A stretch of 60,978 nucleotides of DNA, filler included. It is 7 parts of 7 records of this genome, joined end to end, with 100 filler letters (N's around TTAATTAATTAA, not from the genome) between each part and the next. Parts side by side here need not be neighbours in the genome. Positions count along the whole stretch, not along the records: positions 1 to 8,881 come from SRR31147125_52106; 6 more parts are not named here. One strand, 5' to 3'. Positions 1-56,220 of the stretch are shown in pieces. The translations under genes were made by a program, and so were the position numbers. Under the pieces are notes generated by a model. It saw nothing but the letters and a program-made list of their open reading frames with translations. It ran no database searches and had not been told where the DNA came from. How positions within the stretch are numbered: the stretch's first letter is position 1; the number at the start of each line of letters is the position of its first letter.

Positions 1-1480
1 TTTTTTTATATGGCTGCCAAATTTCTGTTTCTATGTCCGAAAACTCCGGAGCACATACCGGTCACCACGTGGCAAACATAGCCAGAACGACGACCTGATC
101 TTTTAGTTCCTGTAAATTTATTGTTCCACTACCATTTGCGACCACGGGAAGATCAAATTCAGGTGCTGGTATTCCAATATCAACGCCAAAGGTTGAATTA
201 CCAGCCAGTGATACACGAATTCGATTTTCGTCCGGATCATTACTGACAATTTCCATGGTGCCACGCGCATTATTTGCAATAGCCGTATAGAGGATATCAA
301 GAGTTGTTTCCTGCCCGGGTTCAATAACCTGAATAACCGGACTTGTACTAAAATCAGGATGAGTTATTCCAATCCCGGAAAATTCCAGGTTTTCCTGTCC
401 ATTGTTTTGAATTTGTAACTGAGCTGTTTCTGACTGCCCTGTTTGCAAGTGACTAAAGTTAATGACCCTGGTATCGAGATCGATATCCGGACCATTGACA
501 GGCCCGACCTGCATAACACGAAGAAACTGCCATTCTGCTGAATAAACAATATTTCCACCAGGCGATCCAACAGCCATAACCCGGCCACCTGTATTTTTAT
601 ATCCATACAGTTCCAGGGTTGATCCATTCCAGTTAAGAACCTGGAGAGCATTCCAGGCTGATACGGAAACAAAATTACCATCTACTGCAACCCGGGAAGC
701 AAAGCCTGATGTTATAAAATTATCTAAAAAGGTTGGTTGTTCCGGGGACGTGACATCATATACGTCCACGCCAGAGCCACCAACAGCCAGAAAGACTGTT
801 CCATTTTTGAAACGAATATCTCTGGCTGTACCAGAGGTTGCATGATTAGCAATTATTTCTGGCTGCTGTAATTTACTAAAGTTTACGATGGTTAATCCAG
901 AGTCTCCATCTGCAACATATGCCAATGGTTCATTAACGGCCACAGACCACGCATTGGCTGTTGTAATTTGGCTGATGAATTTAGGATCTGCAGGATCGGA
1001 GATGTCATAAAACAAAAGTCCATCTGTATGAGCTGCAAATATCGCTATATTATTCACGATTTCAACATCTTCAAGAGAAATTTGTCCTGTTCTGTTTTTA
1101 CGGTTAAAATTCTCTTCAGCTGGATTGAGCATTTTCCGTAGATTTGGACGAGTCGGATCTGTTATATCCACAATTCCCATTCCGCATTCACGATTTGTTT
1201 CAATAGCTATCGTGTTCTGAATATCCCAATTGTATGAACGACCTCGCCAGATACAAGCCGGTAGAAAGATGGATGAAAGCTCTCTCGGTAGAGTTGGATC
1301 AGAAATATCATACAACACAGCACCACCAAGACCAGCCGGGATAATCATTTTTGAGCCTTCAATCTCTACGTCCAATAATTCAAAATTGCTCGGATTGAGT
1401 GTGCTAACCAGAGAGATGTTTTTTCCAAAAAGCATTGTGGCGCTTGCAAAAATGAGCAGCGCAAAAAAGATTCTTTTCAT
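1..1480 (-). CDS. Exported LVIVD-repeat / Ig-like / TlpA-AhpC-type redoxin fusion, probable selenoprotein (UGA at 62-64); 3'-partial
   Basis: Signal peptide, LVIVD-like repeats (AVLYDISDPTLP, LAYVADGDSGLTIVN), an Ig-like segment, then a redoxin start (PAPEFDLP...KDQVVVLAMFATW). Reading through TGA gives U-PVCAPEFSDIETEIWQPYKK, open to the window edge. ATG at 1480 lies 1 nt after the upstream stop. Confidence 0.85.
32..57 (-). promoter_or_regulatory. Candidate bacterial SECIS hairpin
   Basis: 3' of the UGA the mRNA reads UAUG-UGC-UCCGGA-GUU-UUCGGA-CAUA: a two-part stem whose loop starts with G after 17 intervening nt. Confidence 0.65.
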
Positions 1481-1481
1481 T

Positions 1482-3761
1482 TTAATCACCCGTTTTAAAA
1501 TGAGAAGGTTTTAAAAGATTCAGCATTTCATTTATTTTTGTTGTCGGTGAATTGCATGCATAATTTTGACAGACATAGGCTGTAGGTTTTCCATTTACTG
1601 GTAAATGATATTTCGTAAATTCGGCAAGATAGGAGATGTCTTTATCATGTTGATTCTGTGGCAGGAATATAACTATCTTGTTAGGTAAAAATTCTTTTCG
1701 CAATCCTGAAACCATTTTATGTGTAGAAGAGCTATCTGGTGTCCCTGCAATGACAACCTCCGAACTCGGTCCTAAAATAAAATCGTAAGCAGAAAGGAAA
1801 AATGAATATCCTGTTGGCATTTGTTTTACTTTGGAGGAAAAAGTGTTTACAATAAGATGAGCTTTTTCCTCAAGGTCTTTATTGGCGGTGATCCGGGCCA
1901 GGCGAATAAAATTTAACGCAGCGATTGAATTTCCGGAAGGTAGTGCGCTATCATAAAATTGTTTTTGTCGAACAAGTAAATCTTTCTCTTCATTGGTAGC
2001 AAAATAGAGAGCTCCACCTATATCGTCCCAAAATAGTTTTATCATATCCTCATTTAATTGAAGAGCTGATTTTATATAGTCTGTTTCAAATGTTGTTTCA
2101 AATAACTCTATCAAACCCCAAATAAAAAACGCATAGTCATCAACATGAGCAGGTAATCCTGAATGCCCGTTCCGATACCTGTGCTGCAAGCGACCGTTCG
2201 AATCCATCAGATGAGTCATCACAAAATGAGCCGCGTCTTTTGCAGCTTTAAGGTAACGCGGTTCATCAAATACTCTGGCAGCTTTTGAAAAGGCGGCGAT
2301 CATCAATCCGTTCCAGTCGGTTAGTATTTTATCATCCTTGAGAGGATGAACACGGTTTTGTCGTTCCCTGAATAGCTGTCCTCTGATATTCTCGAGACGT
2401 TTTTGCAGTTTATTCGGAGACATGTTTTGATTTGCCGCAATGTGTGCCATTGAATCCTTCAGGTGAAGGATATTTTGTCCCGTTTTTTCGCCCAGAATAG
2501 GGTCATCAAAGTTGCCTTTTGTTTGTAGATTGTAAACGCTAATAAACAGGTTTGCATCACTTTTATTCAGAATTTTATTTACTTCATCAATTGACCAGAC
2601 ATAAAATTTACCCTCTTCACCTTCGCTGTCTGCATCCTCGGCTGTATAAAAACCCCCTTCCGTGGAAGTCATATCGCGCATTATATAGGCACATATTTCA
2701 TGTGCGGTGCGGGCGTATTCGATGTTTTTTGTTGCCTGGTAGGTCTCAATATAAGCCATGGCGATCAAAGCCTGATCGTATAACATTTTCTCAAAATGCG
2801 GGACATGCCACGACTTGTCTGTTGCATAGCGGTGGAATCCATAGCCGATATGATCGTATATGCCCCCGAATCGCATACTGTGTAGGGTTTTTTCAACCAT
2901 GTCCAGGGCTTCTTTATTGCCGGTTCGATGCCAGTATCGTAATAATAACAGTAAATTATGGGGTGTCGGGAATTTGGTTGAGGAGCTAAAACCTCCATTT
3001 TTATTATCAAATCTATTTTTCAATTGCTCAAAGGCTAAACTAAAAACAGATTCTCCAAGGGATTCCTTTGGGAGATCGTCTGATAATTTGAACAGAGTGG
3101 AGGTGATTTGGTCTGCTGATTCCAAAATATCGTTCCGCTTGTTTTTCCATACGTCACGGACTCTTGGAATAAGATCCATCATGCCAATTTTGTTGTAATA
3201 TGTATTTTTAGGAAAATAGGTACCGGCAAAGAAGGGTTTCTTATCCGGCGTCATCAGGATAGTAAGGGGCCACCCACCACTTCCTGTCATCATTTGGCAC
3301 ACGGCCATATATAAATTGTCAATATCAGGTCTTTCTTCACGATCCACCTTGATAGAGATAAACGTGTCATTCATTAACTTTGCCACATCCTCATCTTCAA
3401 AGGATTCGTGCTCCATCACGTGACACCAATGACACGTGGAATAGCCGATAGAAAGAAAAATGGGTTTGTTTTCTTTTTGAGCTTTTTCAAATGCCTCCTG
3501 TCCCCATGGATGCCAATCGACAGGATTTGTTGCATGTTGTAATAGATAAGGACTTTTTTCAAATAAAAGTCGGTTAAAAATTTTTCCGTTATCCGGGTGT
3601 AGAACAGACGTGTTTGTCCTGTCAGGAGGTGTTTTAATATCGCTTTTGTTCCCTGTCTGGTTATCAGTTTTAAAGCCAGAGGCTAAATAGGTCGTTGTCA
3701 CCACAATTCCCACCAGAATTATTTGAAATTCTCGTTTTGATTTTTTCACTTTTTCTTTCAT
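1482..3761 (-). CDS. Thioredoxin domain-containing YyaL/SPATA20 (DUF255) family protein
   Basis: [53 protein letters not shown]; extra hydrophobic N-terminal segment. Confidence 0.93.
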
Positions 3762-6794: not shown

Positions 6795-8881
6795 TTATGC
6801 CTGTTCCGGAGCGACGTTAAATTTTCTTTTTCTCCTGGCCGCTCGTTTTGTTTTTATTTTTTCACCAAATAATTCCAGTGCTGCATAGAGAACAGGAACA
6901 ACAACAAGTGTGAGCACGGTAGCCACCATCAAGCCTCCCATAACAGATCTTGCCATGGGTGCCCAGTTTTCACCACTCTCACCAAGTCCCAATGCAAGTG
7001 GAAGCATGGCCAGAATAGTCGTTAGCGCTGTCATTAATACAGGACGCATTCGAACCCGACCTGCCTGATAGATCGCATCAAATAATGATATGCCCTCTTC
7101 ACGTAATTGATTGATGTAATCGACAAGCACAATACCATTATTAACCACAATTCCAACTAACATGATTATGCCGATAAGAGCCATGACACTCAGGGTCGTA
7201 TTGGTAATAAATAATGCAAAGGCTACCCCGATAATTGAAAGGGGAATAGTAAACAGGATAATAAAAGGATCTATAAACGATTCGAATTGAGATGCCATGA
7301 CCATATAAACCAAAAGTAACGCAACTAACATGGCCAATCCGAGGTACATAAACGATTCCTGTTGTTCTTCAGCAACACCACCGATCTCAAGTCGAAAATT
7401 ATTGGGAACAGGGATTGTGCCTAACACTTTATTAACATCGGCTGTAACGCTTTGTAAATCCCGTCCGGTAATGTCAATATCTACTCTGACAATTCGTTCC
7501 TGATCCTCACGGTTAATTTCAGTTGGTGCTTTACTATAATCCAGAGATGCCACTGAACGTAAAGGAATCTGTTTTCCAGTCGGAGTCATTATGAGGATGT
7601 TACCGACATCTTTTTTACCTCTTCTTTCATCTTTTGCCAATTGAACTCGTACATCATATTCGTCGCCTTCTTCCCGATATCGGGTGACCACTGAACCGAG
7701 AATATGAGTACTCACAACTTGCCCTATTTGGGCTGTACTCAAGCCCAGATCTGCGATTCTCTTACGATCCAGATTAACCTTTATTTCCGGAGCTGTTTCT
7801 TTAATGCTTATCTCTGTACTGACAACACCTTCAATAGATTTGACATTATCCTCAATGGTTTTAGCCAATGATGAAGCGCGTTGTAAATTGTGTCCGAATA
7901 TTTCGATAGATATATCACCTGATGTTCCAAATATATCCATGCCCCGATCCTCAAATCTGGCTTTAACATCAGGAAGTTTGTCAAAATAACCACGCAAGTC
8001 ATCCTGAATTTCAAACATGGACCGTTTTCGTTCTTTTCTGGATTTGAGCCTTATGATAATCTCACCTTCGTTTGACGCACTGGCGGAAAAAACGGCGAAC
8101 AATCCCTCTCCCTGGCCAAAGTTTGTGTAGACCATTTCCGCCTCTGGTACGTGCTCCCGAATAATGTCATTCATTTTGTGAACACTTTTTTCCATAGCTT
8201 CAAGACTGGTACCAGGGGATCGATCAATCGCAACTTGAACATAACCCATGTCCGATTCGGGTAAAAATTCACCACCACTTGTAGATAGTAAAAATATGGA
8301 TAGTACAAAAAGGCCCAGCGTCGAGAATAATACTGTTTTTCTGTGATTCATGGACCACTTTAGTGATGTATCATAAACCGATTGCAGGTTCTCAATCCAA
8401 AATCCGATTTGGTTGCCCAATTTGTGTAATCGGCTTGATTTATTTGTTTCACGTCGAAACTGCAACAATCTCGATGCTAAAAGTGGCACGAGAGTCAGTG
8501 CTACCAGCAGTGAAATGGCAAGTGAAAAACATATGGTCACCACCATGTCATTAAACAACGCCCCGGCTATTCCAGGAACGAACAAAACAGGGACAAATAC
8601 GGACAGAGTCGTAAGTGTGGATGCTGTAATGGCCATGGCCACCTGAGTGGCTCCTTTAAAAGCTGCCTCGCGTGGTTGCTCACCTTCCTCGTGCTGGCGA
8701 AAAATACTCTCCAAAACCACAATGGAATTATCTACCAAAAGACCAACAGCCAGGGCTAAACCGGCCATGGAAATAATATTCAACGTAAGTCCTGCCTGGT
8801 CCATGACCGCAAATGTAACGATCATTGAAATTGGAATTGATGTTGCTACTATAAGAGAGCTTTTCATATTTCTCAGGAAAA
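6795..8881 (-). CDS. RND efflux permease, AcrB/AcrD/AcrF family; 5'-partial
   Basis: GLLVDNSIVVLE, GIVVNNGIVLVD, RMRPVLMT motifs; runs into the linker. Confidence 0.95.
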
Positions 8882-8981
8882 NNNNNNNNNNNNNNNNNNN
8901 NNNNNNNNNNNNNNNNNNNNNNNNNTTAATTAATTAANNNNNNNNNNNNNNNNNNNNNNNNNNNNNNNNNNNNNNNNNNNN
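8882..8981. other. Artificial contig linker
   Basis: N44-TTAATTAATTAA-N44; stop codons in all six frames. Confidence 0.98.
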
Positions 8982-10744: not shown

Positions 10745-12348
10745 ATGAGACGCATTTGCTTATTGGCTATCGGAATCATGTTTTCAGTTCAGGCAATCGC
10801 ATTTGCCGAAGGAATTCCATACTCATATGAACAAGCTGAATGGTTCGTTATTTCCGAAAAAGGAACTGCCGCTCTGAAATCAGCTTTTCCAATCAAATCC
10901 TCACTTGGCAAAGGCAATAAAGTTTGCGAAATAAACGTTAGTCGCGACAATGCTCGTGTATGCGTCAAGGTAAAGCCGATGGTAAAAAATGTGCCCTCGT
11001 TTTCCATCCCGATCAAGCATTCAAAGGCGATAAAATAATAGGAAATTTTGCCATTCATAAAGCTGCCGACAATAACGCAAACGGCGCATGGGAAGTGCTT
11101 GCCAAAAAGCTTGGAAAAATCAAAAAGGATGTATGGACAAAATCCAAGCACGATCATGCCGAGTATCTGCATCTTGATGATAAAATCACAACTGTCATGA
11201 TGACTCTGCTTGATATGTATGAAACCAGCCTTGCTCATGAACTCTATAACGGACTCGCCGAACTCGACTATGACAAACAAAAAGCAGCAAGATTGTTGTA
11301 CTTATTGTATGGACAGGAAAAACGACTAAAAAATGCAGAGAAAGTTTACAAAGAGTTGACATCAGATGGAGCCGATGATCCTGTTATTAAAGCCATAAAA
11401 GCCAGAGTTCTTTCCATTAATGGTGAAATAGAAAAAGGAGCAAAACTGCTTGCCGAAGCTGTTGCAAACAGGCCAAAAGGCAGTGAGCTAAGATGCGAGC
11501 AAAGCTTTTTTACAATACAGCTAATCAATAAAGGAAACAGAGAAGGCGCGTCAGATAAAGTATGGCAGACTTTTAGAAATGAATTTCCTGACTGCCTAAA
11601 TCTCTACACTCATCAAATATGGAAAAACATCAACACAAAAGACATCAAAGATGCTTGTGATATTTGCGATGAAGCAATGAAAGCCTTCCCTGATAATCCA
11701 CAATTGATCTTTGCTAAAGCCTTTATACTTTATAGGCAAGGTAATTATACAGAAGCAGCAAATATGGTTATATCTCTCAGCAAAGTTAGAAAGAATAATT
11801 CCGAAATCCTGTTCCTGAATAATCAAATCCTTTCTGCATTTAATGAGCAAGAAGCAAAAGATTATTTAAAAGTTGCAACTAAAGAACTTGAAACAGATCA
11901 AAGCAACTTAATGTTTGGCCATGCAATCGGATATGTCAATTACAACCTAGGCAACTTTGATGATGCGATTAAAGCCATGCTTACTATAGAACCTCAATTA
12001 AAAACCAAGGAAAGCGTTTATCGTATTTTAGCAATGTCGTATTACTACAAAAACGACACAAAGGCAGCTACCAAATGGATTGAAAGTTTTGAGAAAGCTA
12101 TACCTCAATCCGACACAATTTTACGCATCAAAGCAATATTCTTTAGCAAAAAAGATATTGATAAATCAAAGGCTTTTCTTAAACAATACATGGATCGAAT
12201 CAAACAGGATGGCCTGACTGATGAGAAATTCATATTACAGATTCAAAATGAACTAAACAGCCTTGATAAAGGAGTAATTCCTCCCAAATGGGAAAAAGGA
12301 CCTTTATATAAAGCGGAAAACATTCAAACTGATCGTGAAGAAGGCTAA
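10745..12348 (+). CDS. Exported TPR-repeat protein, split by a probable frameshift near 10968
   Basis: GAGGTG RBS and a signal peptide (MRRICLLAIG...AFA) in one frame; continuation GKADGKKCALVFHP and TPR-like helices in the other. Confidence 0.6.
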
Positions 12349-12590
12349 ATCCGGCTATTTCCAATTATGAAGAATCGTGTTATCAAAAGGGGGCTTTTTT
12401 ATTAGCTGCTGTACTCATTGCGCAGGTTTGCTATTGCTACGCTAGTGCAGCATTACCTTCTGAGCTGATATTTCAAGAAAAATCCCAAAAAGATGTTATT
12501 CAGAACTGGACATTAAAAGACACCTTCTCTTCTCCCGTACTTATAGAATTTCTCTTTGTTCACGAAAAACATGGCGAGCTAAAAGTTCGA

Positions 12591-14443
12591 TTGATAGACA
12601 AAGATGAAAACAAAGGAGCTTTTAAAAGAAGCACTTCCTTTAACATTCTTTATGCAGGAAAACAAACAAAAGATCCGGATAGAAATCAATCGATTATCCT
12701 GCTTATGGAGGAAATTTCCTCACAAGTACAAAAGAATGATGCCGGTCAAATAAAGCTAAGGGCTCCTCCCAAAACAGAAAATAAAAACAATCTTCAAACA
12801 GAACAAAATGAAAAAGACAGAATTCTCCCATATGGCGCACCGGAATGGCTCACGATCAAGGCTTGGAAGATAGTCGATGCGCTTGAGCGAATGCTTGCTT
12901 TTATTTTACTTGTAGTTGCTTTATTCGGAATTTTTTTCCTGCTGCCGATAATTCGGAAAGATTTGTTTTTATGGAGTAAAAATGAAAGGTGGTTATTCTT
13001 TACTCTGGCTCTGCTCGCTTTTTTGCTGCGACTTGCTATACCAAACCGTTTGGTAATGGAATTCGGCGGCTATCAACTTCTTGATCAGGCGATCCACTTT
13101 GAGAAAATTTATCGCTATGGTGCCGGATCACCCATGTTTTACAACTTGCTTATGAAAATAATTCCAGGTGAGGCCGATGCTTATTTTCTGATAAATACTA
13201 TTTTCGGCAGCCTGACTATTGTTATCGCCTCATTGTGGCTGCAAAAAATTTTAAAAATCAACCGGCTTGCAATTGTATCTATTGTGTTCCTTGGTATTTC
13301 ACCTCTTTTGTTAAAGGATCATAACTCCGAAAGCAATCTCATTCCTGCCATGTTTTTCTTCTTTACGGGACTTTATCACCTAAGCAGTTACAAACGTAAA
13401 CACATTCATTCGCTTGTTTTTATACTTGCTTCATTTTTATTCTGTATTATTTCACGTCCACTGTTTTTTATCTTCATACCCGCTACTTTACTGATTCTGA
13501 ACTTCCGCTTCCAGGGTGTCTATCATTTTGAAATTCTGAGAAATAAAAAGAAGTGGATTGTCGGCCTGCTTGTTTTAACAGTTGTCGTTATAATAATTTT
13601 CCGACAAATTTTAATCCTGTATCTCGTTCTTGTGTTATTGATTGCTGAGTTACGAGATAAAAAATCTATTCGTAAGCTCGACTGGAAGTATTTGGCAAAA
13701 ATAAGCGGTCTGGCTTTAGTAATCCTGTCTCCTCATTTAGCCTTTTTGATTATCTACTATATCTCCGATCTTTCAAGTGGAGATGCAAGCGGTTTTCTGG
13801 GGGCATCCGAAGGATTAGTTCGCCAATTCTTTTCTGGCAACATGTTTTTACGGCCGGATATGAATCCACTTTTTTATACTGCCCTATTTCTGTTTGCATG
13901 GGTATTTGCCAAAAGCCGCCAAAGACTTGATCTAATGAGATTTACAGTAATTGGTTTTTGCTTCTTTGTTTTCTATTTCGTTGATGCTCCACCTCCTTCT
14001 TTGCCAAGATTACAGATTCCAAGTATTTATTTCTGGAGTTTTATTTCGGCTATCGGTTTGGCATTGTTTTTTGATAGCCAATGGTTTAAAAAGCGAAAAC
14101 TTCTGGCATTTTTGCCTATGATTTTGTTATCGAGTTTTTATTGGCCTATCAAAGGAGTGTGGGAACCTACAAACGCAGAAAGAGAACAGGAAGCTCTTGA
14201 ATATATCGCAGAAATCCTACCCGATAAGCCGGTTGTTTTCATTCGGATAGGCATTCCGGACAAACCAAAAACCTGGGGAATTTTCAGAGAATATCCGGAA
14301 TATCTGTTTGAAAAACCGAGACGCAATGATCGTATTATGGATATCTCTTCATGGATGTCTGCCTACAATAAAAATGAAATTAAAACGGATAGTTACTTTT
14401 ATCTTGGCATGCGTTGCTATGCTGTAAATTACAAGCGAAAACC
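12591..14443 (+). CDS. Polytopic membrane protein, GT-C-like glycosyltransferase candidate; 3'-partial
   Basis: More than ten hydrophobic segments and a KDHNSES loop. The true start may be ATG 12367, followed by homopolymer indels. Confidence 0.55.
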
Positions 14444-14543
14444 NNNNNNNNNNNNNNNNNNNNNNNNNNNNNNNNNNNNNNNNNNNNTTAATTAATTAAN
14501 NNNNNNNNNNNNNNNNNNNNNNNNNNNNNNNNNNNNNNNNNNN
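14444..14543. other. Artificial contig linker
   Basis: N run containing TTAATTAATTAA. Confidence 0.98.
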
Positions 14544-14544
14544 C

Positions 14545-15579
14545 CGCTACCTGACTTCGGCACAGCCGAACCTGGTTTGGAAAGGCATTCTGGAGGATGA
14601 TCCTTATCCAATTCGCGCTATGATCGTCAGCGGCAGCAACCCTGTCATCTGTCAGGCCGACAGCCACTTGATCAGAGATGCCCTGACGCGGCTGGACCTT
14701 TTGGTGTCATTGGATATGTTTGTCAACCCGACCAACGCTCTGGCTGATTACATCTTGCCGATGGCTGGAAGTCTGGAGCGCCCTGTGCTGCAGACCAATG
14801 CAGGTGTGTCTGACATCGCTTATGGAGGCCCTCCGGCCATTTTGCCGCTTTATGAACGCAGAACTGATTTTGCTTTCTGGAAAGATCTAGGTGTCTACTG
14901 TGGACAAGAAGCACACTGGCCGTGGGAGACCTTTGAAGACAGTCTTGATGATATCGTCCAACCGCTAGGAGTGAACTGGGAACAGTTTTGCCGGGCCGGT
15001 TTGTATGCGTCAGAACCAACTTACGAAAAATATCGACGAAAATCCTCAAACGGTGCTGAAGGATTTGCAACGTCCACCGGGAAAATCGAGCTCTACTCCT
15101 GTTTTCTCGAACAGTTCGGTGTGGACCCCTTACCTGAACATCAGCCTTCAGAAAAGAGTGCGGAACTGCCTCTCACTTTGGTGACCGGTGGGCGCAAACA
15201 ACCGCACTGGGCCTCTTCCTTTCGCCAACTTCAAACATTGAAAAAGCCAAACCAGCGTCCGACTGCGGAAATCAGCCTTGCGACAGCACGAGCAAACAAG
15301 TTGATTGACGGTCAGCATGTCTGTGTCGAAACGGCGTGGGGGACAGCGTCTTTTTATTTGAAGATCACCGAAATACGAGATGAGGTTGTCAATGTTGATT
15401 ACGGCTGGTGGTTTCCCAATCAGTCACTCGATTCCACTTCTCTCGGTGGCGCATTTGCAGCCAATGCGAACACCTTGACGACGGCACAATTTAAAACGGC
15501 TGACCCTGCTTTGGGGCAATGGAAATATAACGATATTCCTTGTCGGATTTATGCACAGCCTTCCGACAGAACAAAATAA
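14545..15579 (+). CDS. Bis-MGD molybdopterin/tungstopterin oxidoreductase, C-terminal part, acetylene-hydratase-like subgroup; 5'-partial
   Basis: PYPIRAM..GSNP, ADYILP...LERP, GFATSTGKIELYS, YGWWFP and NANTLT motifs; frame open to the contig edge. Confidence 0.85.
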   Translation, partial: RYLTSAQPNLVWKGILEDDPYPIRAMIVSGSNPVICQADSHLIRDALTRLDLLVSLDMFVNPTNALADYILPMAGSLERPVLQTNAGVSDIAYGGPPAILPLYERRTDFAFWKDLGVYCGQEAHWPWETFEDSLDDIVQPLGVNWEQFCRAGLYASEPTYEKYRRKSSNGAEGFATSTGKIELYSCFLEQFGVDPLPEHQPSEKSAELPLTLVTGGRKQPHWASSFRQLQTLKKPNQRPTAEISLATARANKLIDGQHVCVETAWGTASFYLKITEIRDEVVNVDYGWWFPNQSLDSTSLGGAFAANANTLTTAQFKTADPALGQWKYNDIPCRIYAQPSDRTK

Positions 15580-20635: not shown

Positions 20636-20735
20636 NNNNNNNNNNNNNNNNNNNNNNNNNNNNNNNNNNNNNNNNNNNNTTAATTAATTAANNNNNNNNN
20701 NNNNNNNNNNNNNNNNNNNNNNNNNNNNNNNNNNN
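20636..20735. other. Artificial contig linker
   Basis: N run containing TTAATTAATTAA. Confidence 0.98.
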
Positions 20736-34758: not shown

Positions 34759-34858
34759 NNNNNNNNNNNNNNNNNNNNNNNNNNNNNNNNNNNNNNNNNN
34801 NNTTAATTAATTAANNNNNNNNNNNNNNNNNNNNNNNNNNNNNNNNNNNNNNNNNNNN
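34759..34858. other. Artificial contig linker
   Basis: N run containing TTAATTAATTAA. Confidence 0.98.
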
Positions 34859-34873
34859 AATTTATAATTGTGT

Positions 34874-35157
34874 AAATGCAATGACGGAAAAGAGTAGTTA
34901 TATAAAGGCTATTAAAGAGAATCAGCGTTTTGGTGAAAGCTGTATAGCACGATTATAATGAAGATGGCTTCAAGAGCAGCATGGGTGAATGATTAGCTTG
35001 TGACGGATATGGGAACGTTATAACCCAAACTAAATCGCGCTGTAGGTAATATTTTTCGGTTTAGGCAAGAGATGAATGTGAGATTTTTTTAATTTTCATG
35101 TTTGAATAAGGGTGGTACCACGATAGCTCGTCCCTTTTGTAGGGTGGGGCTTTTTTA
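34874..35157 (+). ncRNA. T-box riboswitch leader (Met-specific)
   Basis: Stem-I AGAGA and GGTGAAA motifs, candidate specifier AUG at 34964-34966, T-box AATAAGGGTGGTACCACG at 35105-35122, then a terminator with a U run; upstream of metG. Confidence 0.92.
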
Positions 35158-35180: not shown

Positions 35181-37109
35181 ATGAAAGAGAAGTATTATAT
35201 TACGACGGCTATAGCATACACATCAAAGACGCCTCACATAGGTAATACATATGAGGCAGTATTAGCCGATGCAATTGCAAGGTTTAAGCGCCAAATAGGC
35301 TATGATGTATTCTTTTTGACAGGTACTGATGAGCACGGTCAAAAAATAGAAAACCAAGCAAAAGAAATGGGTATAGCACCTAAAGAGCATGTTGATAACA
35401 TTGCAGCAGAAGTTAAGGAAATCTGGGATTTTATGGGTACGAGTTATGATAAATTCATAAGAACTACTGATGATTACCATGAAGCGGCTGTACAAAAAAC
35501 ATTTGAAAAACTATATAAACAAGGTGATATATACAAAGGCTCATATGAAGGCTGGTACTGTACATCATGCGAATCATTCTATACAGAGGGGCAGCTGAAT
35601 GAAGGTAAATGTCCAGATTGTGGTGACACTGTTGACAAGGCGAAAGAAGAAGCTTACTTTTTAAAGCTTTCAAAGTATCAAGATAGGTTGATGAAGCATA
35701 TTGAAGAGAATCCTGAATTTATTCAGCCTGAATCCCGTAAAAATGAGATGGTTAATAACTTCATCAAACCAGGGCTGCAGGATTTATGTGTATCAAGAAC
35801 ATCATTTACATGGGGCGTACCTGTAACGTTTGATGAAAATCATGTAGTGTATGTATGGATTGATGCGCTTTCAAATTATATTACGGCATTAGGGTATGAC
35901 ACTGAAACAGATGCTCCATTATATAATAAATACTGGCCTGCTGATGTTCATTTAATAGGTAAAGATATATTAAGATTCCACACAATTTATTGGCCTATTA
36001 TGCTTATGGCACTAGATGTTGAACTGCCAAAGCAGGTTTTTGGTCACCCATGGCTTTTGCAGGGTACTGATAAAATGAGCAAGTCAAAGGGCAATACAAT
36101 ATATGCAAAGCAATTGGTTAATCATTTTGGCGTAGATGCAGTAAGGTATTATCTGCTTCATGAAATGCCATTTGCCAACGATGGATCTTTGACATATAGT
36201 TTGTTAATTGAAAGAATAAACGCAGAACTTGCAAATATATTAGGAAACCTGGTTAACAGAACTATTGCAATGAGCAAAAAGTATTTTAACTCAAAGATAA
36301 TGGCTCCAACTGAACTAGAAGACATTGACAAAGAGTTGATGGACTTGGCATTAGCTACTCCTGCAAAACTGGTTAAATCTATGGATGAACTAAAAGTAGC
36401 TGATGCAATAAGCTATGTATTTGAACTATTGAGAAGATCAAATAAATATATTGACGAAACTTATCCATGGCTGCTTGCTAAGGATGAAAGCAAAAAGGGA
36501 CGCCTAGGAACTGTATTGTATAACTTGCTAGAAAGCATTAGGTTCTCTGCTGTAATGTTAGCGTCATTTATGCCAGAAACAGCTAAAAAAATATTTAAGC
36601 AAATAAACACTACAGTAACTGACTGGGACAGTTTAAGCAGCTTTGACGGAATGAAAGCAGACGATACATTAGGTGAAGGCGAAATACTATTTGCCAGAAT
36701 CGACGCTGAAAAAAAATTAGCTGAAATTGATGAAGAAAACGAAAAGAATTTGCCAAAAGACAATATTGAGATAGTGTCGAAGCCTGAAATAACAATTGAT
36801 GATTTTGATAAAATTGATATTAAAGTTGGAAAAGTATTGGAATGCAAAAAGCTTAAAAAATCTAAAAAACTGCTTGTATCTAAAGTGAAGATAGGCAATC
36901 AAGTTAGGCAGATAGTTTCTGGAATAGCTAATTACTATGATCCAAAGGATATGGTTGGCAAGAATGTAATGGTAATAATAAACTTGAAACCAGTTAAGCT
37001 TTGTGGTGAATTATCAGAAGGCATGATATTAGCGGCACAAAATGAAGATGGTTCTTTAGTTGTATGTTCCCCAGAAACTGAAGTTACAGATGGGTGCACA
37101 GTAAGCTGA
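35181..37109 (+). CDS. metG: Methionine--tRNA ligase
   Basis: HIGN, GTDEHG and KMSKS motifs, a zinc knuckle and a C-terminal tRNA-binding domain. Confidence 0.97.
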   Translation: MKEKYYITTAIAYTSKTPHIGNTYEAVLADAIARFKRQIGYDVFFLTGTDEHGQKIENQAKEMGIAPKEHVDNIAAEVKEIWDFMGTSYDKFIRTTDDYHEAAVQKTFEKLYKQGDIYKGSYEGWYCTSCESFYTEGQLNEGKCPDCGDTVDKAKEEAYFLKLSKYQDRLMKHIEENPEFIQPESRKNEMVNNFIKPGLQDLCVSRTSFTWGVPVTFDENHVVYVWIDALSNYITALGYDTETDAPLYNKYWPADVHLIGKDILRFHTIYWPIMLMALDVELPKQVFGHPWLLQGTDKMSKSKGNTIYAKQLVNHFGVDAVRYYLLHEMPFANDGSLTYSLLIERINAELANILGNLVNRTIAMSKKYFNSKIMAPTELEDIDKELMDLALATPAKLVKSMDELKVADAISYVFELLRRSNKYIDETYPWLLAKDESKKGRLGTVLYNLLESIRFSAVMLASFMPETAKKIFKQINTTVTDWDSLSSFDGMKADDTLGEGEILFARIDAEKKLAEIDEENEKNLPKDNIEIVSKPEITIDDFDKIDIKVGKVLECKKLKKSKKLLVSKVKIGNQVRQIVSGIANYYDPKDMVGKNVMVIINLKPVKLCGELSEGMILAAQNEDGSLVVCSPETEVTDGCTVS

Positions 37110-42311: not shown

Positions 42312-42411
42312 NNNNNNNNNNNNNNNNNNNNNNNNNNNNNNNNNNNNNNNNNNNNTTAATTAATTAANNNNNNNNNNNNNNNNNNNNNNNNNNNNNNNNN
42401 NNNNNNNNNNN
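42312..42411. other. Artificial contig linker
   Basis: N run containing TTAATTAATTAA. Confidence 0.98.
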
Positions 42412-55481: not shown

Positions 55482-55581
55482 NNNNNNNNNNNNNNNNNNN
55501 NNNNNNNNNNNNNNNNNNNNNNNNNTTAATTAATTAANNNNNNNNNNNNNNNNNNNNNNNNNNNNNNNNNNNNNNNNNNNN
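55482..55581. other. Artificial contig linker
   Basis: N run containing TTAATTAATTAA. Confidence 0.98.
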
Positions 55582-56220
55582 GATTGTATTCGTCGCCGCT
55601 AAATCTTTTCCCTGAAATCCTCTCACCCGGGCTGCGGCGATTTGGCATCCCAGATACGTATCCTCGCCTGCTCCTTCGACGATCCGGCCCCATCGTGGAT
55701 CACGGGCAATATCCACCATGGGAGCGAACGTCCAATGGATCCCGGTTGCAGCAGCTTCTATCGCTGCAATGCGAGCTGATTTTTCGATCGCCTCCAGGTC
55801 CCAACTGGCCGCTTCAGCTAATGGAACAGGAAAGATCGTTTTGTAACCATGTATCACGTCCAGGCCGAAAATGAGCGGGATACCCAATCGACTCTTTTCA
55901 ACAGCCACTTTTTGTAAGGCTCTGGTCTCTTTGGCGCCCGCAACATTTAAAAACGATCCGACGCGTCCCTTTATCACATCTTTATATTTGGGATCTGTCT
56001 CTTTTTTACTCCGATCCGGTCCGGTCTGAGCCCAGGCACCACTGTACTGATTGAGTTGTCCGATCTTTTCTTCCAACGTCATCTTTTGTAACAAAAAATT
56101 TACCCGATTCTCAATATCTACTGAAGACAACTTTTTTACTGGTGCTTCCATATTCATCTGACCTTTTGCGCTTACCGAAAAAAGAATCAAAAACAACCAC
56201 TGTACGATAATCTTATTCAT
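55582..56220 (-). CDS. GH3 beta-glucosidase (BglX-like); 3'-partial
   Basis: Signal peptide; MTLEEKIGQL, DVIHG and RDPRWGR..EGAGED. Confidence 0.93.

Follow-up and report, generated by a model that had tools for sequence, protein, structure and literature searches.

A probable selenocysteine-containing propeller-redoxin protein family whose database entries are cut or misread at an in-frame UGA codon

Redoxins with selenocysteine (Sec, U) in the first position of the active-site motif are a recognized class of bacterial selenoproteins. A 2026 review (PMC13188914) lists among predicted selenoproteins a "Prx-like thiol:disulfide oxidoreductase" (PF00578, UxxC/UxxU) and a "Redoxin family protein" (PF08534, UxxC), and the Global Ocean Sampling (GOS) survey (PMC2398784) contains the families "Prx-like 1" and "Prx-like 3". 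Here we describe a gene at the left edge of a 60,978-nucleotide stretch of assembled DNA (the window, by which we mean this whole stretch) that very probably encodes a further member of this class, which we call a propeller-redoxin protein. With the redoxins of the Zhang/Gladyshev catalogues it shares the same Pfam domains, a UxxC motif with Sec in first position, and an in-frame UGA followed by an adjacent hairpin. Those entries are, however, described there as redoxin-domain proteins, whereas the protein found here, about 680 residues long, has the redoxin as its fourth module; and while the catalogued UxxC families have many Cys homologues, we have seen none for the propeller-redoxin family. 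Its redoxin part may already be counted in the marine GOS tallies, which are built from short reads.

Outside the selenoproteins, the nearest relatives of the redoxin, both among solved structures and among NCBIfam models, are the ResA/TlpA/CcmG(DsbE) proteins (for example Bacillus ResA, 4nmu and 1st9; E 2e-15 among structures and 2e-18 among NCBIfam models). Common to both are the W-C-x-x-C site, the loop region of the P-x-P cis-proline and export. ResA, TlpA and DsbE work with the partners CcdA or DsbD and act on apocytochrome c and CuA sites. They are single-domain, Cys-based and membrane-anchored or periplasmic, whereas the protein described here has Sec, a propeller, an immunoglobulin (Ig)-like domain and a sorting tail, and it is a relative rather than a member of the NCBIfam ResA subfamily (NF002854; 66.8 bits against a cut-off of 170). 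Three further NCBIfam models, NF041054 (ResA-like WAxxUGC), NF040737 (PrxU) and NF041425 (OS_HP2 (seleno)protein), cover families of (seleno)proteins with a thioredoxin fold or an Ig-like domain, which annotation pipelines are by now able to rescue. Membership in these was rejected as well, with 23.7 bits against 300, 34 against 270 and 16.5 against 100, respectively. Since no curated NCBIfam model claims the family, pipelines still truncate it.

The coding sequence in question occupies 1..1480 of the window on the minus strand; it comprises 493 codons from an ATG at 1480 and is cut by window base 1, such that only its 5' part is present. The likely start codon is this ATG (1480-1478), one base past the stop of the upstream gene. 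Under translation table 11 the minus-strand open reading frame (ORF) runs from 1489 to 62 and ends with the residues DQVVVLAMFATW (VVVLAMFATW) at a TGA, seen as "tca" at 62-64 on the plus strand. When this TGA is read as U, the frame stays free of stops to window base 2 and gives U-PVCAPEFSDIETEIWQPYKK, so that the residues from the TGA to the window edge are U-P-V-C-A-P-E-F-S-D-I-E-T-E-I-W-Q-P-Y-K-K. The putative Sec codon (62..64, minus strand; residue 476 of protein P0001) thus stands at the site of the first, nucleophilic Cys of a WCxxC motif. The first-pass annotation of this DNA had already ended the ORF with AMFATW on this TGA at precisely that site, which the frame, the Pfam matches and the ResA alignment of a relative all confirm, and had seen the frame remain open beyond it as W-U-P-V-C, which holds up to the window edge. 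A Logan contig of 37,005 nt (depth 35.7), from what is probably the source run, agrees with positions 1-1500 of the window without a single differing letter and extends beyond base 1; because it is the product of a second assembler working on the same data, this agreement is not independent evidence. Window positions 1480..1 are best explained as a single minus-strand gene that encodes an exported selenoprotein of about 680 residues and of which the 5' three-quarters are present.

All four domains detected in the read-through product (LVIVD, Ig-like, AhpC-TSA and Redoxin) score above their curated Pfam cut-offs. Its N-terminus is a predicted signal peptide, MKRIFFALLIFASATMLFG (1424..1480, minus strand), which was read from the sequence and in which we saw no lipobox Cys; it is followed by a conserved K-N-(L/I) mature start, with a KNL consensus and an invariant N22 in the family alignment (A3). 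An LVIVD-repeat beta-propeller follows (500..1420, minus strand; PF08309, 6e-16), and then an Ig-like beta-sandwich of the HYDIN/VesB/ASH/DUF1573 or "choice-of-anchor D" kind (212..490, minus strand; PF22544, 1.2e-9), which covers residues 334-426 as Pfam HYDIN/VesB and is also found above cut-off by NF012200 (6.9e-12). The last module in the window is the N-terminal third of a ResA/TlpA-type redoxin containing W-U-P-V-C (2..178, minus strand; AhpC-TSA profile positions 1-52 of 124), detected as AhpC-TSA at residues 438-490 (1.3e-7; 32.0 bits against a cut-off of 26) and as Redoxin (1.5e-6; 28.5 bits against 26.6). Both matches begin 38 residues ahead of the TGA, which therefore lies inside the domain.

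What the complete protein probably looks like can be seen in a relative, L001, which is 683 residues long when read with U. There, AhpC-TSA runs straight across the TGA (residues 438-558, profile positions 2-123 of 124, E 2.3e-24; 86.1 bits, with 63.5 bits for Redoxin), and Pfam and NCBIfam further report LVIVD, the choice-of-anchor D Ig-like domain, FlgD_ig and Por_Secre_tail. The U of this relative aligns residue by residue with the first Cys of the ResA WCxxC (4nmu, E 2e-15). A confident AlphaFold2 model of L001 built from 35 full-length sequences (pLDDT 86.8, pTM 0.75) predicts four folded modules in order: after a signal helix (residues 2-16) come an all-beta propeller (21-330), a beta-sandwich (335-429), a thioredoxin fold of beta-alpha-beta type (445-575) and, beyond a disordered linker, a C-terminal beta-sandwich (594-681). 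Foldseek aligned this model with seven-bladed propellers at TM-scores of about 0.7 (normalized by target); for the whole model it returned generic seven-bladed propellers and PorZ only and hence no functional lead. No metal-binding domain was found in the protein itself.

That this codon is real is better supported by relatives, which were retrieved with a propeller-derived pattern that is blind to the TGA column. They comprise 30 loci from species-representative genomes and 25 from metagenomes, and every one of them has TGA at this column (30/30 and 25/25; 55/55 altogether), followed by the motif P-[VA]-C-x-P-[EQ]-[FL]-[SA]-D. Wherever the contig continues, the frame stays open for 165-380 codons past the TGA, which completes the redoxin and adds a sorting tail. 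A look at homologues at this column had been named at the outset as a check, and its outcome is favorable: the TGA is kept, conservation continues past it and the redoxin domain is brought to completion. The second, resolving Cys of U-P-V-C (TGT, 53..55, minus strand) is invariant among the 47 distinct sequences on which our codon analysis rests; these were drawn from 55, namely the window and the 54 loci that remain without L030. The named genomes belong mostly to Candidatus Neomarinimicrobiota/Fidelibacterota (one shared taxid, FCB group), and the nearest relative, at 55% identity, is a KSB1 metagenome-assembled genome (MAG). Among metagenome contigs queried with the window's own protein, no relative was found. 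One member, L059 (2745-3887), is atypical in having some 250 extra residues past the redoxin, with a C-x-x-C motif (W-C-Y-F-C) and then a dockerin-like pair.

Bacterial Sec insertion requires a signal in the RNA, and a candidate bacterial Sec insertion sequence (SECIS) lies at 32..55 on the minus strand, with a core hairpin at 50..36 (UCCGG AGUUU UCGGA). Run on 30 sequences, RNAalifold predicts the hairpin UCCGG-AGUUN-UCGGA, beginning 12 nt past the UGA, as a feature of the family; of its five pairs, four are invariant, whereas pair 25-31, a G-U in 29 sequences, is C-G in the remaining one, L022, and likewise in the metagenomic L059. In both L022 and L059 this double change also swaps two amino acids together (E to Q and S to A). 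Codon usage, as judged from the aligned sequences, is more telling than covariation as a sign of constraint at the RNA level. In all 47 distinct sequences codon +4 is NNT, over four different amino acids, codon +5 is CCG, codon +6 ends in G and codon +8 is NCG; the flanking codons vary, Pro +1 being spread over all four of its codons (17/11/11/8), with free variation also at Val +2, Cys +3 and Asp +9. The synonymously frozen stretch coincides with the hairpin. According to section 5 of PMC13188914, the bacterial SECIS (bSECIS) model demands an apical loop of 3-9 nt with a G in its first two positions followed by G or U, an upper stem of at least 4 bp, a distance of 16-37 nt from the UGA and a minimum free energy (MFE) of at most -7.5 kcal/mol. 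The window hairpin conforms to this model in silico (loop AGUUU, 5-bp stem, spacing 16 nt, MFE -8.2), and 38 of the 47 distinct sequences pass the MFE threshold over 45 nt. In the window the hairpin is also predicted to gain a 4-bp lower stem with a bulged C, which we rejected as a family feature since the consensus lends it no support.

The machinery to decode such a codon was profiled in five genomes that hold family members (G001-G005), all of them relatives' genomes and not the window's own. SelA, the SelB wing domain and SelD are each present in all five, and tRNA-Sec exceeds the Rfam cut-off in four, in each of which ARAGORN calls a tRNA-SeC with anticodon UCA. Moreover, the selD genes of G001-G005 (L061-L065) themselves contain an in-frame TGA (G-U-A-x-K) with downstream hairpins that have GUU or GUA apical loops. 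The loops of these selD hairpins resemble the AGUUU loop of the propeller-redoxin family, and G001 additionally encodes a 750-residue SelD fusion without TGA. TGA serves at the same time as an ordinary stop: among 42 long ORFs of the window eight terminate on it, as do nine of the 27 family genes that are complete, which excludes a reassigned code.

These genes are poorly served by the protein databases. A protein search returned 763 matches, of which 120 were listed and 18 inspected (16 short and 2 long). All but two of the 120 listed proteins are 433-517 residues long, and the 16 inspected short entries all stop exactly at the TGA column, with ends such as ...FFASW or ...FFAPG. The two long entries (687 and 690 residues) show W at the column, and the DNA of both (L045 and L055) has TGA. 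A search aimed at the redoxin among proteins of 375-1196 residues gave three matches: the truncated L001 product, an unrelated multi-thioredoxin protein and a 418-residue fragment that also reads W at the TGA column. When 1.84 billion representatives were searched with a profile, all 13 family matches in one stretch ended at profile position 465-466 of 670, and no full-length single-stretch match occurs among the best 150. A form with Cys at the TGA column was seen neither in the loci nor in the inspected protein entries nor in the profile-search matches, an absence whose reach is limited by the clustering of the profile-search list and its swamping by giant LVIVD/Ig/T9SS repeat proteins (T9SS, type IX secretion system). 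The early remark that UxxC redoxins are a known class which gene callers truncate thus applies here in both its parts, as the class is catalogued and the short entries end at the TGA column.

Where the protein acts is suggested by the C-termini of its relatives. The tail of L001 exceeds the cut-offs of both TIGR04183 (39.5 against 23 bits) and PF18962 (27.5 against 27). Sorted by a crude custom regular expression, the tails of 54 loci fall into 34 that are T9SS-like (one cut), 10 that are dockerin-like (one cut), 5 that are ambiguous and 5 that are cut too early; L004 matches the Pfam dockerin weakly (E 0.009), but PF00404 is precomputed for P0262. SprA is found in five of the five relatives' genomes and PorU above cut-off in three. 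In most relatives the family resembles T9SS type-A cargo of the FCB group, with which it shares the C-terminal Por_Secre_tail/TIGR04183 and genomes that encode SprA and PorU; unlike plain type-A cargo, a sizeable minority of its members swap this tail for a dockerin-like pair. Because two alternative surface-display tails sit on one conserved core, the protein would act at or beyond the outer membrane. This is consistent with the surface exposure that the first-pass annotation had proposed, as far as predicted T9SS- and dockerin-like tails together with SprA in 5/5 and PorU in 3/5 genomes can indicate it. PorU exceeds its cut-off only in genomes whose family member has a T9SS tail (L001, L012 and L020), a pattern that may be due to chance with five genomes; the genomes with dockerin tails (L004 and L027) have just shorter PorU-like matches.

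Several observations weigh against reading this gene as a selenoprotein gene, or against individual parts of that reading. The window ends 20 codons past the TGA, and the remainder of its own redoxin and its tail are extrapolated from relatives that are at most 55% identical. The window contains no tRNA gene, no sel gene was found among its scanned ORFs, and tRNA-Sec was not found in G001, the fragmented MAG that holds the window's closest relative. Covariation in the hairpin is thin, given that four of five pairs never vary, that only two, maybe related, sequences show the compensatory change and that the stem has 5 bp; nine of the 47 distinct sequences fold more weakly than -7.5 kcal/mol over 45 nt, and Rfam gives no match at the hairpin site even at E <= 10. 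Some relatives are irregular: in L030 (4075-4080) TAG replaces the preceding Trp and Tyr the resolving Cys, and the frame is broken within the propeller of L027 (at about 3920) and of L059 (at about 1980). Copies of this type look decayed or mis-assembled. Finally, we see no evident reductant beyond the outer membrane, so that the step of activity at the surface is weakened, and the neighbouring candidate, a DUF255 protein, must be rejected as a family-wide partner because it is found beside none of the 55 relatives' loci.

How far do these observations favor other explanations? If the TGA were a true stop, the gene would encode a 472-residue propeller-Ig protein and the downstream frame would be a separate redoxin gene or a dead remnant. 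Gene callers everywhere do end the protein at the TGA, and table 11 yields ORFs past it (for example, L001 4385-4990). Partial termination at UGA, which is expected in any bacterial selenoprotein gene when selenium is scarce, can also be counted in favor of a stop. Termination here would, however, sever the first strand of one thioredoxin fold from its active-site helix, and a downstream ORF would be missing 38 residues at the start of the domain along with the first residue of the active site; a remnant would not remain open and conserved among sequences that are 35-55% identical, nor does a stop account for a frame and spacing kept in 55/55 loci with a frozen hairpin right after the codon. 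We consider a true stop extremely improbable. Only a little more credible is that the TGA is read as a standard amino acid (Trp, Gly or Cys) via a reassigned code or near-cognate suppression. It is true that three database entries have W, presumably since the caller chose code 4 or 25, and that Trp precedes the TGA position in most members; yet TGA is a working stop in the window and in family genes, so the code is not reassigned, and at this column the fold has its catalytic Cys, so that a Trp or Gly would abolish activity. This explanation also leaves aside the complete Sec system and Sec-containing SelD of the relatives as well as a SECIS-like hairpin at the right distance. The chance that a TGC or TGT became TGA through faulty sequencing or assembly seems close to negligible: within the window the codon does rest on assemblies of one probable source sample, but the same codon occurs in 55/55 independent loci from many assemblies, the second assembler's contig is identical at a depth of 35.7, and a Cys codon was seen at the column in no relative. 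We are thus confident, short of certainty, that the gene encodes a genuine Sec-containing propeller-redoxin protein, as had been proposed at first sight of the sequence and as is now supported by the TGA in 55/55 loci, the continuity of the domain, the hairpin and the Sec machinery of relatives.

A different kind of alternative accepts the selenoprotein and disputes its activity, making it a surface thiol peroxidase or a part of a system that handles thiophilic metals or chalcogens (Hg, Se or polysulfide). In its favor, the Pfam family is AhpC/TSA and peroxiredoxins are among the weaker matches; L001 stands beside redoxins, a Crp-type regulator and an Fe/Mn superoxide dismutase; and the gene is clustered in relatives with DUF3179, a Cys-Cys protein and, in L012, a MerT-like protein, with DUF3179, MerT-like and DUF1573 proteins being themselves listed selenoprotein families in PMC9312934 and PMC13188914. 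Conversely, W-U-x-x-C places the active site with ResA/TlpA/DsbE rather than with the PxxxTxxC of peroxiredoxins (the peroxidatic motif being PxxxTxxC/U according to PMC13188914), the best NCBIfam match is ResA (2e-18) as opposed to PrxU (2e-8), and the MerT match is weak and confined to a single locus, with no metal-binding domain found in the protein. Membership among the peroxiredoxins proper was rejected, in view of the W before U, the missing T-x-x-U and a PrxU score of 34 against 270 bits. We regard this alternative as unlikely, albeit one that deserves to be kept in mind.

The Sec-containing propeller-redoxin protein could then work as follows. The UGA at 64-62 would be decoded as Sec by SelB and tRNA-Sec, recruited by the hairpin UCCGG-AGUUU-UCGGA inside the coding sequence. 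The product would consist of a signal peptide, a seven-bladed LVIVD propeller, an Ig-like domain, the W-U-P-V-C redoxin and, as predicted from relatives, a T9SS- or dockerin-like tail; it would be exported by the Sec protein-export pathway and then displayed via T9SS or dockerin on or outside the outer membrane. There the selenolate, in the place of the nucleophilic Cys of CxxC, would attack a disulfide, or a different oxidized form of sulfur or selenium, bound by the propeller/Ig scaffold. The Cys three residues further on would resolve the selenenylsulfide so formed, and the U-C pair would be re-reduced by an envelope thioredoxin-like partner, for which the upstream DUF255/DsbH-like protein is a candidate. 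Taken on its own, this mechanism of a surface disulfide reductase strikes us as an even proposition. The analysis shows the codon with its conservation, the unbroken domain, the constraint on the RNA and the relatives' machinery, from which we infer the actual insertion of Sec as well as location, substrate and reductant.

Thiol-redox proteins recur among the neighbours of the propeller-redoxin gene. Immediately upstream in the window lies a gene for a 759-residue DUF255/Thioredox_DsbH protein that is anchored in the membrane by its N-terminus and contains C-H-W-C (1482..3761, minus strand). It belongs to the same operon and is translationally coupled to the selenoprotein gene, with one base from its stop to the ATG, and its product is a possible redox partner of the selenoprotein. 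In relatives the company is different. A small exported DsbD-gamma/DsbH-like thioredoxin is encoded immediately upstream of the family gene in 7 of 55 loci, DUF3179 lies beside it in 17, and an uncharacterized protein of 310-320 residues, with a signal peptide and an N-terminal Q-x-C-C-x-[LI]-Q-G motif, in 10. L012 alone has a MerT-like membrane protein of 122 residues (a weak match, E 1e-5 to 1e-6, below cut-offs). The recurrent neighbours are located at 186-2983 in L012 and at 974-2988 in L004; they stand upstream in L011, L002, L003, L006, L026 and L041 and downstream in L010, L013, L024 and L025. DUF3179, MerT-like and DUF1573 proteins are selenoprotein families in other organisms, as listed in two reviews (PMC9312934 and PMC13188914). 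L001 adjoins two further redoxins besides the Crp-type regulator and the Fe/Mn superoxide dismutase, and extra redoxins, Crp-type regulators or superoxide dismutase stand beside the family gene in several loci. On the other side of the window's gene, the Logan contig matches window positions 529-606 and 29-76 again, about 2.1 kb further on and at equal spacing (record positions about 11,750-13,800), a match table that suggests a tandem propeller-redoxin paralogue with its own TGA and hairpin beyond window base 1.

The remainder of the window must be viewed in the light of its composition. At least seven contigs make it up, and between them stand six linkers, each composed of 44 N, TTAATTAATTAA and another 44 N (a six-frame stop spacer), at 8882-8981, 14444-14543, 20636-20735, 34759-34858, 42312-42411 and 55482-55581. 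Because the contigs are joined by linkers, genes beyond position 8881 are not shown to be linked to the selenoprotein gene. The apparent errors elsewhere in the window, which had been taken for indels, are instead cuts of contig ends at the joins: AcrB is cut at a join (6798-8867, without profile positions 1-355), a molybdopterin oxidoreductase is represented by just a C-terminal piece (14620-15579), and a GH3 protein by its N-terminal half alone (55537-56220). The sole Rfam match over the window is a T-box leader (34872-35138, plus strand), whose 99 bits exceed the gathering score and which is directly followed by a gene for methionyl-tRNA synthetase (35181-37109, plus strand).

With respect to novelty, the architecture had from the start not been recognized as a described one. 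This stands for the literature that we searched, where members of the family may be hidden under a generic name in the catalogues' supplementary tables, and it does not extend to the UxxC redoxin class, which is known. In that literature we found no selenoprotein cargo of type IX secretion and no LVIVD selenoprotein, and the listed papers on Sec in Marinimicrobia hold nothing on a propeller-redoxin protein as judged by title or abstract. The words propeller, Marinimicrobia, signal peptide and secreted do not occur in the 2026 review (PMC13188914), and neither do propeller, LVIVD, Marinimicrobia or redoxin in the BSepDB paper. The family is real, widespread, systematically mis-annotated and architecturally unusual, with a chemistry that lies within an established class of selenoproteins.

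Taken together, we argue that this family deserves attention for what its annotation conceals. Every database entry that we inspected is wrong in a like manner, being either cut at the Sec codon and named "hypothetical protein" or written with the codon as Trp. Annotation, metaproteomics databases and counts of selenoproteomes therefore miss both the catalytic domain and the sorting signal of a widespread marine protein. The clean hairpin with its frozen codons provides a simple, lineage-specific SECIS signature that could rescue more genes. If the surface location is true, this would be a selenoenzyme outside the outer membrane, where the resistance of Sec to irreversible over-oxidation and its fast exchange chemistry would fit, and it would tie a demand for selenium to the uncultured Fidelibacterota (Marinimicrobia). 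In its widest form, which we put forward as a tentative and on balance improbable proposal, the family would, in view of the absence of a Cys form from the collections searched, be obligately selenium-dependent; displayed at the surface, it would capture and reduce extracellular disulfides, polysulfide or other thiophilic species by a selenolate on the propeller/Ig scaffold in Fidelibacterota and their FCB relatives, together with DUF3179, the Cys-Cys protein and the DsbD-gamma-like thioredoxin. Were this so, it would represent a new extracellular selenium-based redox system in some of the most abundant uncultured bacteria of the ocean.

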